Below are positions 32,657-34,265 of a stretch of DNA of 64,000 nt, one piece after another. The notes beneath the pieces are model-generated. The model had not been told where the DNA came from. It did no database searches and was given only the letters and a program-made list of their open reading frames with translations. Within the stretch, counting starts at the first letter, position 1, and each line of letters starts with the position of its first letter. Position numbers and translations under genes: made by a program. Origin of the DNA: Escherichia coli (GTDB lineage Bacteria > Pseudomonadota > Gammaproteobacteria > Enterobacterales > Enterobacteriaceae); assembly GCF_009931435.1 (NCBI RefSeq), contig NZ_CP043414.1. The stretch is one strand, 5' to 3'.

Positions 32657-32827
32657 ATGAACATCGGTAAAGCAATCATCAACTACGCAGCGCGTCGCAA
32701 CATGGACATTACCTGATTGACGATGAGACCGTGGCGTTCTGGGAAGCGGATAACGATTGTGAATGGATGTTCTCCTACATGATTGGTAATGATGGTTTCC
32801 TCCACTTTAAAGGCAATGTGTATCTGC
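32657..32827 (+). pseudogene. 5' part of a small unknown gene, interrupted by the IS element and carrying an internal frame shift
   Basis: Strong SD (ACGAGGGGG) and ATG at 32657 encode MNIGKAIINYAARRNMDIT then a stop; the +2 frame continues ...LIDDETVAFWEADNDCEWMFSYMIGNDGFLHFKGNVYL up to the IS boundary. Confidence 0.5.
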
Positions 32828-32835
32828 TGTAGTGG

Positions 32836-33656
32836 TCAACAAAAATTGGCCACGGCTTTAGAGTTTTTCCAGAACAATCGTTCTGATTCATTCGGCGTCA
32901 AACCACCGTTATATTGATGAGGTCTGAGCTGGCTGTAATATCCCGTGATGTAGTTTGTTATCGCTGCGCTGGCTTCGCTAAAATTAGCGTATCCATTATC
33001 TGGTACCCACTCCGTTTTCAGGCTTCTAAAAAAACGTTCCATCGGGCTGTTATCCCAGCAATTTCCCCGGCGACTCAGGCTTTGTTTTATCTGATATCTC
33101 CACAGTAACTGTCTGAAATTTCTGCTGGTATAGTGGCTCCCTTGATCCGAGTGATACAGCAAATTAGCGGGCTTTCCTCGCGCTTCCCAGGCCATGGACA
33201 GCGCTTTCGTTGTCAGTGCAGAGTCCGGGAAAAATGACATCGCCCAGCCAACCGGTTTACGGGAAAACAGATCAAGCACAACGGCTAAATAAGCCCAACG
33301 TTTACCCGTCCAGATATAAGTCACATCGCCACACCAGACCTGATTAGGCTCTGTTACTGCAAACACTGGCGTTCAAGATAATTGGGGATCTCTACGTGTT
33401 CCGTAGACGCCTTCTTATATCGATGGCCAGGCTGCTGACAGCTGATGAGATTAAGTTCTTTCATCAGCTTTGTTGCTCGCCAGCGCCTCAGTTTTACGCC
33501 TTTAGTTGTGACCATCGCGGCAATATTACGTGCACCTGCGGAACCATTACTTTCGCGATAGCTTTCACGAACAAGACTGAGTAATGACACGCGCGCGACA
33601 TCAGGCTTCTTTGGCTGCCGCCAGTATTTATAGCTGCTGCGATGAACCCCAAACAC
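32836..33656 (-). pseudogene. IS3-family transposase OrfB (DDE integrase domain), split by an extra frameshift near 33354-33366
   Basis: Two overlapping ORFs (33354-33656 and 32836-33366) in different frames together cover the DDE domain. Confidence 0.7.
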
Positions 33657-33700
33657 GTTGCATACAACGGCAACAGGAAACCGCGCCCTGAGTTTCTCAA

Positions 33701-34012
33701 CTAATGAGAACTGTTCAGGGAGTCTGACATCAAGAGCGCGGTAGCCTTTTTTAATATATCCCTTTCCATTTCAACGCGTTGAAGTCTTTTCTTCAGCTCG
33801 CGTATTTCAATCTGCTCAGGCGTCATTGGTGAAGCTGTGGGGGATTTTCCCGCTCGTTCCTCTTTCAACTGGCGGACCCACTTATCCATCGTGGATTTAC
33901 CGACATTCATTGCCGTAGCAGCGGCTGCAACCGTGTAATGCTGATCGAGTACAAGCTGGGCAGCTTCGAGGCGAAACTCTGGGCTAAAATTACGTCTGTT
34001 ACGTCCGGTCAT
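33701..34012 (-). CDS. IS3-family transposase OrfA (HTH, leucine-zipper-like)
   Basis: 103 aa, [38 protein letters not shown]...; similar to IS911 OrfA. Confidence 0.85.
33746..33752 (-). promoter_or_regulatory. Programmed -1 ribosomal frameshift heptamer (A AAA AAG) of the IS3-family element
   Basis: Reverse complement of cttttttt near the end of orfA; classic IS3-family slippery site. Confidence 0.6.
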
Positions 34013-34078
34013 AATGTCACCTGTTTTTGACTATGAGGCGATGATATCACCTCTATTCAGGTGGCCAAATTCAGTGTG

Positions 34079-34265
34079 CCACTACAGTATGGCTAAGATG
34101 GAATCAGAGATTAAATCACTTAAAGCTGATAACGCCGCATTACGAAAGAGTTTAAAACTGATTGATGAGACTAATGCGGTTATGATGGATCATGTATTCC
34201 CTGAGTGGCGAAATGAAACTAAACCTACACAATATAAGAAACCTACACTTCGAGTGGTTGCATAA
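34079..34265 (+). pseudogene. 3' part of the IS-interrupted small gene (coiled-coil tail)
   Basis: The frame continues across the IS: ...GNVYL | RMAKMESEIKSLKADNAALRKSLKLIDETNAVMMDHVFPEWRNETKPTQYKKPTLRVVA*. Confidence 0.45.

Follow-up and report, generated by a model that had tools for sequence, protein, structure and literature searches.

An IS911-like element in Escherichia coli that probably marks a prophage deletion of about 33 kb and joins parts of two unrelated phage genes

Insertion sequences (ISs) of the IS3 family, IS911 included, transpose by a copy-out-paste-in pathway that proceeds through a circular intermediate. The textbook product of an IS-associated deletion is a single IS with differing triplets at its two ends and with flanks that belong to distant sites. 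Such IS-mediated deletions, among them the cases of prophage “grounding,” leave one IS with heterologous flanks that map to distant sites of an intact relative. The unmatched repeats beside such a copy arise when two copies recombine or when the IS transposes within one molecule. In these cases, the interior of the prophage, with its recombinase, lysis, and structural genes, is lost and accessory genes at one end are kept. Target duplications that fail to match have been used to read IS-linked rearrangements, and IS911 has been described as a copy-and-paste element (PMC4471558).

The window considered here, a 64,000-nucleotide stretch of E. coli DNA (contig NZ_CP043414.1 of assembly GCF_009931435.1), carries an IS911-like element flanked on both sides by phage DNA. 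A preliminary description held that this element interrupts one small open reading frame (ORF). Comparison with related genomes leads us to assign a probability of about 0.9 to another reading, in which the IS sits at the junction of a prophage deletion that removed about 33 kb, and the ORF is chimeric rather than one gene that received an insertion. Read in this way, the feature is the ordinary scar of an IS-linked deletion in a prophage, of a kind already known and similar to the cases outlined above both in its single IS with heterologous flanks and in the loss of recombinase, lysis, and structural genes with accessory genes kept at one end. The parts of the IS are as follows.

32828-34086, minus strand: IS3-family insertion sequence with IS911-like layout, 1259 bp, delimited by its inverted repeats and by alignment of copies
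32828-32853: right inverted repeat, IRR
34061-34086: left inverted repeat, IRL
33701-34012, minus strand: intact orfA of 103 aa, whose product is the same as the OrfA of a 96.9% identical copy (L008)
33746-33752, minus strand: A AAA AAG heptamer for programmed -1 frameshifting from orfA to orfB, in the orfA zero frame
33365-33366, minus strand: 2-bp GT insertion in orfB (GTGT, not GT), absent from copies L002, L003, and L008
32836-33366, minus strand: 3' part of orfB, a 176-aa ORF with the rve/DDE core, out of frame with the 5' part (33354-33752)

The left boundary of the element lies at 32828 (TGTAGTGGTCAAC...) and its right boundary at 34086 (...GTGCCACTACA). Its termini are 5'-TGTAGTGG...CCACTACA-3', and copies in other genomes and plasmids cease to match exactly there. 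The terminal inverted repeats are imperfect, with 27-nt arms that are 78% complementary, and have the 5'-TG...CA-3' ends typical of the IS3 family. Membership in this family is further indicated by two consecutive ORFs joined by a -1 frameshift and by a DDE profile match: the 3' ORF of orfB scores 215 bits against NCBIfam NF033516 (IS3 family transposase), for which the cutoff is 160, and precomputed Pfam matches in the transposase are rve and rve_3. The canonical slippery site that had been recognized from the letters alone is indeed present, and a -1 shift at this heptamer brings translation into the frame of orfB, just as in L008, L010, and IS911.

Also correct was the suspicion of an extra frameshift in orfB. 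The GT insertion ends OrfAB at ...NYLERQCLQ, immediately followed by a stop and upstream of the DDE catalytic domain. An autonomous IS would have an OrfAB that runs uninterrupted through this domain, and the window copy does not. Because the transposase is broken and the genome holds only this one copy of the IS, the element should be inactive on its own, as had been supposed. The two ends of this copy, by contrast with its transposase gene, look intact.

Outside the two ends lie tgc (32825-32827) and gta (34087-34089), which differ at all three positions. Precise mapping of the ends to 32828 and 34086 revealed no repeat, which agrees with the earlier remark that a 3-bp duplication is missing. 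Direct repeats of 2-5 bp were also sought, both at these ends and with the ends moved by one base, and none was found. The shifted ends (CTGTAG...CTACAG) were rejected because independent copies terminate in TGTAG/CTACA; they too leave the element without a duplication. The window copy therefore lacks the 3-4 bp target duplication expected of the IS3 family (tgc vs gta), and this reflects the history of the copy, not its family membership.

IS911, known from Shigella dysenteriae and from copies on the S. flexneri plasmid pWR100, has the same layout of orfA, A AAA AAG, and orfB with a DDE core. The terminal repeats of IS911 and the window IS are nearly identical (TGTAGTGGCACACTGAATTTGGCCACCTGAA vs TGAAGTGGCACACTGAATTTGGCCACCTGAA), the length is about 1.25 kb, and there are relatives with 3-bp duplications. 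The termini differ, being TGTAG in the window IS and TGAAG in IS911. Against the pWR100 copy, which the NCBI annotation pipeline PGAP assigns to the IS911 family, the window IS has 72.4% nucleotide and 72.6% OrfAB identity. Isoforms in ISfinder share, by convention, roughly at least 95% nucleotide identity. Thus, the IS3-family assignment and IS911-like organization that had been proposed hold, but with identities of 72% for nucleotides and 73% for OrfAB the window element is judged, from its sequence, to be a different IS and not an isoform of IS911. PGAP and NCBIfam offer only the generic name “IS3 family transposase” for it.

The nearest intact relative resides on an Enterobacter IncFII plasmid (CP057783.1), shows 96.9% nucleotide and 97.7% OrfAB identity, and is flanked by a GTC duplication. 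Enterobacterial plasmids and Yersinia pYV widely carry an element of 1256 bp that is about 90% identical. In E. coli, copies with at least 99% identity are rare, and all of them are degenerate and have no duplications (e.g., those of RM10410 and strain 550). The copies in RM10410 and strain 550 were therefore dropped as references for duplications, and relatives with 87-97% identity on plasmids and in other genera were used instead. Among the 10 full-length copies scored (at least 87% identity), perfect 3-bp duplications flank six, whereas the chance expectation is 1/64. Four of the five plasmid relatives have them (GTC, GTG, CAC, and AAT), as do two of the five copies in other genera, a crude count because the ends there were derived from BLAST coordinates.

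Several side observations concern these relatives. The copies in RM10410 (L002, 3001-4257) and strain 550 (L003, 3001-4259) have one flank in common, upstream of an L-lactate permease gene, and their opposite flanks differ. The lesions are particular to each copy (a CT insertion in L003, for example). For strain 550 and its relatives, 7-8 matching places per genome are listed. In a scan of contigs, the 24-nt IS end GGCCAAATTCAGTGTGCCACTACA was found as exact matches in 74 stretches (L019-L092) from many genera, including Erwinia, Rahnella, Pantoea, Citrobacter, Serratia, Shewanella, Rheinheimera, Chitinibacter, and Deefgea, as well as one Chryseobacterium assembly. The elements attached to it share just 66-90% identity overall; conservation is thus far stronger in the terminal repeat than in the body.

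Since close relatives usually carry 3-bp duplications, the mismatched triplets beside the window IS are informative and point to a rearrangement. The DNA on the two sides can be divided into the following features.

32501-32617, minus strand: 3' fragment of the antitoxin gene hicB, ending at the attachment junction (...GGTTTGCC/TAATATC...)
32618-32827, plus strand: prophage left arm, comprising a leader and 170 nt (32658-32827) from the 5' end of a phage gene of 273 bp and 90 aa that is truncated at the IS
34087-34265, plus strand: last 179 nt (codon 22 to stop) of a 243-bp, 80-aa coiled-coil phage gene, 96-97% identical to ETEC1739 (L007:41107-41349)
34266-36920, mixed strands: remaining right-arm DNA of the prophage as far as the right attachment junction, 92.8% identical to and collinear with 14EC017 (L015:37322-40279)
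34974-35540, minus strand: small-terminase-like gene (phrog_57 match)
35887-36666, plus strand: LprI-family gene (Pfam LprI match)
36918-37050, minus strand: internal hicB fragment, with a separate 444-bp deletion at 37050/37051

Homology to K-12 hicB ceases at 32617, and PGAP calls a partial hicB there in a near-identical strain. The junction between hicB and phage DNA is identical to that of the window in 21 genomes. The intact counterpart is a prophage of about 38 kb with a serine recombinase, integrated in hicB and adjoining ydcR, of which the window retains the first ~210 bp and the last ~2.8 kb. In 14EC017 the order is ydcR, the hicB 3' fragment, the 273-bp gene, and then the recombinase, lysis, tail, head, and terminase genes, followed rightward by the 243-bp gene, the small-terminase-like gene, the LprI-family gene, the hicB 5' fragment, hicA, and yncJ. 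The window is collinear with this prophage, in the same orientation, except that L015:2399-37311 is replaced by the IS. The replaced stretch measures 34.9 kb, two secondary IS insertions included, and the window has no match to any of the 14EC017 prophage interior.

Similar relationships are seen with prophages at a second locus. In ES2 and ETEC1739, the left flank of the window IS corresponds to the extreme left end of a prophage of about 36 kb inserted in ycdX, and the counterpart of the right flank in ETEC1739 is found about 2 kb from the right end of that prophage. Within this one ETEC1739 prophage, 32,865 bp separate the break points. The ends of the hicB and ycdX serine-recombinase prophages (14EC017, ES2, and ETEC1739) are collinear with and 93-99% identical to the window flanks, but the window keeps only about 3 kb where they have about 38 kb. 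These best intact comparators, at 93-99% identity to the flanks, are mosaic prophages, and the content and size of the loss are estimates read from them. The flanks thus map collinearly to distant sites of a relative at the same locus and the interior is absent, as is expected at a deletion junction, and a prophage deletion of about 33 kb at the IS would explain the missing target duplication.

What remains is to account for a reading frame that seems to cross the IS. The left piece, with its ATG at 32658, belongs to a 90-aa gene that matches PHROG family phrog_6147 over the full profile (E=8e-33); the left arm is 96-99% identical to the left end of the intact prophages in ES2 and 14EC017. The intact gene continues ...GNVYLPQDIKEELPACIDTDKKLKEVINFIAKEFISKK / ...GNVYLPQDIKEELPAC... 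beyond the break, and the window keeps codons 1-57. Compared with three intact homologs, this piece has also lost one T at 32714 (TT to T), the internal frame change that had been suspected there. On the other side, the intact 80-aa protein of ETEC1739 begins MMNQNKEFLGNLMLEITNMKE/RMAKMESE..., and the window retains codons 22-80. The products of the 90-aa and 80-aa genes are unrelated (BLASTP E=0.51).

When the IS is removed in silico, the sequence reads ...GNVYL-R-MAKMESEIKSLK... in frame and with no stop (GNVYL-R-MAKMESE). This continuity had been offered as support for a simple insertion. Under that reading, the IS entered a single small ORF and the 3-bp duplication was either never made or mutated afterwards. 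However, the break falls after the first base (c) of a codon in both genes. The hybrid codon, c plus gt, is the right gene's own Arg codon, which makes the frame seem continuous, a 1-in-3 coincidence. The halves derive from two unrelated complete genes (90 and 80 aa) that lie 33-35 kb apart in intact prophages (32.9 kb in ETEC1739 and 34.9 kb in 14EC017), which contradicts the view that a single ORF was interrupted. In addition, tgc and gta differ at every position, and the flanks are otherwise 96-99% conserved against homologs.

Searches for a spanning homolog, the uninterrupted gene that a simple insertion demands, were likewise negative in both DNA and protein. Among 5,426 complete E. coli genomes, none has the joined flanks contiguous (at least 80% coverage); the halves match separately, usually twice per genome. 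Among 5.8 billion proteins searched with the chimeric sequence, none spans both halves (MNIGK...GNVYLRMAKMESE...). This search gave 11 protein matches, each to one half: proteins of 90/91 aa cover 49-51% of the query, and right-gene proteins at most 58%. The latter are 80-aa proteins, a 63-aa hybrid call (P0002), and an 86-aa variant that matches 32% of the query. We regard a simple insertion as scarcely credible given these results, and the supposed host ORF is, to judge from its sequence matches, a chimera of two unrelated phage genes.

Hybrid ORFs of another sort run from inside the left end of the IS into the truncated 80-aa gene, one of 83 aa (ATG at 34014) and one of 63 aa (GTG at 34076). 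The latter, a putative ORF at 34076-34265 on the plus strand, is P0002, which gene callers report in many public assemblies. The sole promoter-like match near these ORFs (34068-34041) points the opposite way, towards orfA.

The frameshifts and the unusual junctions raised concern about sequence errors. E. coli 2020CK-00188, a RefSeq chromosome of complete level, shows 3 SNPs relative to the window over 13.3 kb, and its junctions and lesions are identical. All of the 10 public contigs that were read, which come from other samples and assemblers, agree on both junctions, the GT insertion, and the 1-nt deletion, and P0002 is listed in 71 blocks of public assemblies. Because 2020CK-00188 and the 10 independent contigs are identical in these respects, the lesions and junctions are not read errors. 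Assemblers of short reads are known to collapse repeats, and two IS copies that surround a full prophage could have been merged in this manner. Such an artifact is highly improbable here, because the same structure occurs in the window, in 2020CK-00188, and in 10 of 10 independent contigs, some of which have a different hicA/hicB background. Moreover, a block of capsid and portal genes found in 49 genomes is absent from the whole genome of 2020CK-00188, whose junction is identical.

A real deletion might still have preceded the IS. If illegitimate recombination had removed the interval first, then the IS would have had to insert later exactly at the junction. A 2-bp GC microhomology does precede both break points (the H17 match starts at query position 206), but two bases are shared by chance in 1 of 16 cases, and an exact hit on the junction is itself improbable. 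A later insertion would also make a 3-bp duplication as in the relatives, and none is present. Finally, the IS-free junction ...TATCTGCGTATGGC... is absent from the 5,426 complete E. coli genomes. We therefore hold this order of events to be very unlikely.

Recombination between two direct copies of the IS is the most likely route to the deletion, and we favor it at somewhat better than even odds. In this scheme, two copies in the same orientation would have resided in the prophage, the first lying in the 90-aa gene between TGC duplicates and the second in the 80-aa gene between GTA duplicates. The left copy would have had the junction ...GTGTGCCACTACA/TGCCGCAKGATATTAAAG, in which the remainder of the 90-aa gene comes after the IS (...CACTACA/TGCCGCA...). 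The right copy would have had the junction ...ATGAAAGAGCGTA/TGTAGTGGTCAACAAA, in which the 5' part of the 80-aa gene is followed by the IS (...GAGCGTA/TGTAGTGG...). Homologous recombination between the copies would then delete the interval and leave one IS with half of each duplication. The route is a good fit because copy-out-paste-in by IS3-family elements readily yields second copies, although the former second copy is hypothetical. Afterwards or independently, the GT insertion would have killed the transposase and the left gene stub would have lost one base.

Among the complete E. coli genomes, none was found to carry the IS, singly or as a pair, at the predicted ancestral sites. Probes of 401 bp across each IS/flank junction matched only 2020CK-00188, of the same lineage, in this collection. 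A metagenome scan for the reciprocal junction of the left copy, GTGCCACTACATGCCGCA, produced 3 matches, all to unrelated GC-rich contigs and attributable to chance.

The lack of a two-copy intermediate in the complete E. coli genomes and in that one metagenome junction scan is in keeping with another route, as is the presence of one IS copy in the genome today. A single IS copy in one of the genes could have deleted the ~33 kb itself through intramolecular transposition, in a transposase-mediated adjacent deletion where one IS end attacks a site about 33 kb off on the same DNA molecule. Both end points of the deletion coincide with the exact IS termini, which is the signature of transposase deletion and of IS-IS recombination alike. 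Indeed, adjacent deletion and two-copy recombination give the same product, and sequence alone cannot separate them. However, the copy-out-paste-in pathway does not normally give adjacent deletions, and we rate this single-copy route as possible but rather unlikely. If true, an element believed to move by copy-out-paste-in alone would have produced an adjacent deletion. The current understanding of IS3-family transposition is unchallenged by the window scar.

A smaller deletion followed in a sub-lineage that includes the window. Relative to K-12, 444 bp are missing at 37050/37051, so that hicA and the first ~178 nt of hicB are gone, and the junction shows about 1 bp of microhomology. Contigs L100 and L102 have the same IS junction, GT insertion, and 1-nt deletion, yet they keep hicA and the 5' part of hicB. 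Because of this, the 444-bp deletion is placed later than the IS scar. The toxin gene was accordingly lost after the prophage split the antitoxin gene and after the large deletion.

What was a puzzling missing duplication can therefore be viewed as standard prophage decay, in which the recombinase, lysis, and virion genes were probably lost. The remnant keeps accessory genes, LprI-like and small-terminase-like, and the disrupted hicAB toxin-antitoxin locus would have been trimmed later. For annotation, the case supplies a correction: a reading frame that carries on across an IS says little in favor of simple insertion, given that this arises by chance 1 time in 3. An IS with mismatched flanks should instead prompt a search for a deletion or rearrangement.

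The prophages used for comparison offer some further observations. One prophage family occupies two chromosomal sites, hicB (21 genomes) and ycdX, as seen in L006, L007, and L015 and at window positions 32598-32640 and 36895-36945. The serine recombinases of the hicB and ycdX prophages are 92.7% identical, and the chromosomal half-sites are alike (ATTTCCTGTTTAGGTTTGCC vs ATTTCATATTTGGGATTCCC). A search of the literature on hicB as a prophage integration site turned up nothing relevant. Isolated phages in the phage collection gave no match to the remnant apart from the LprI gene block. This block, window positions 35881-36751, shares 91-93% nucleotide identity with hypothetical genes of RB49-like T-even phages (Krischvirus), which are lytic, and the LprI gene appears to be common to a temperate prophage and virulent phages.
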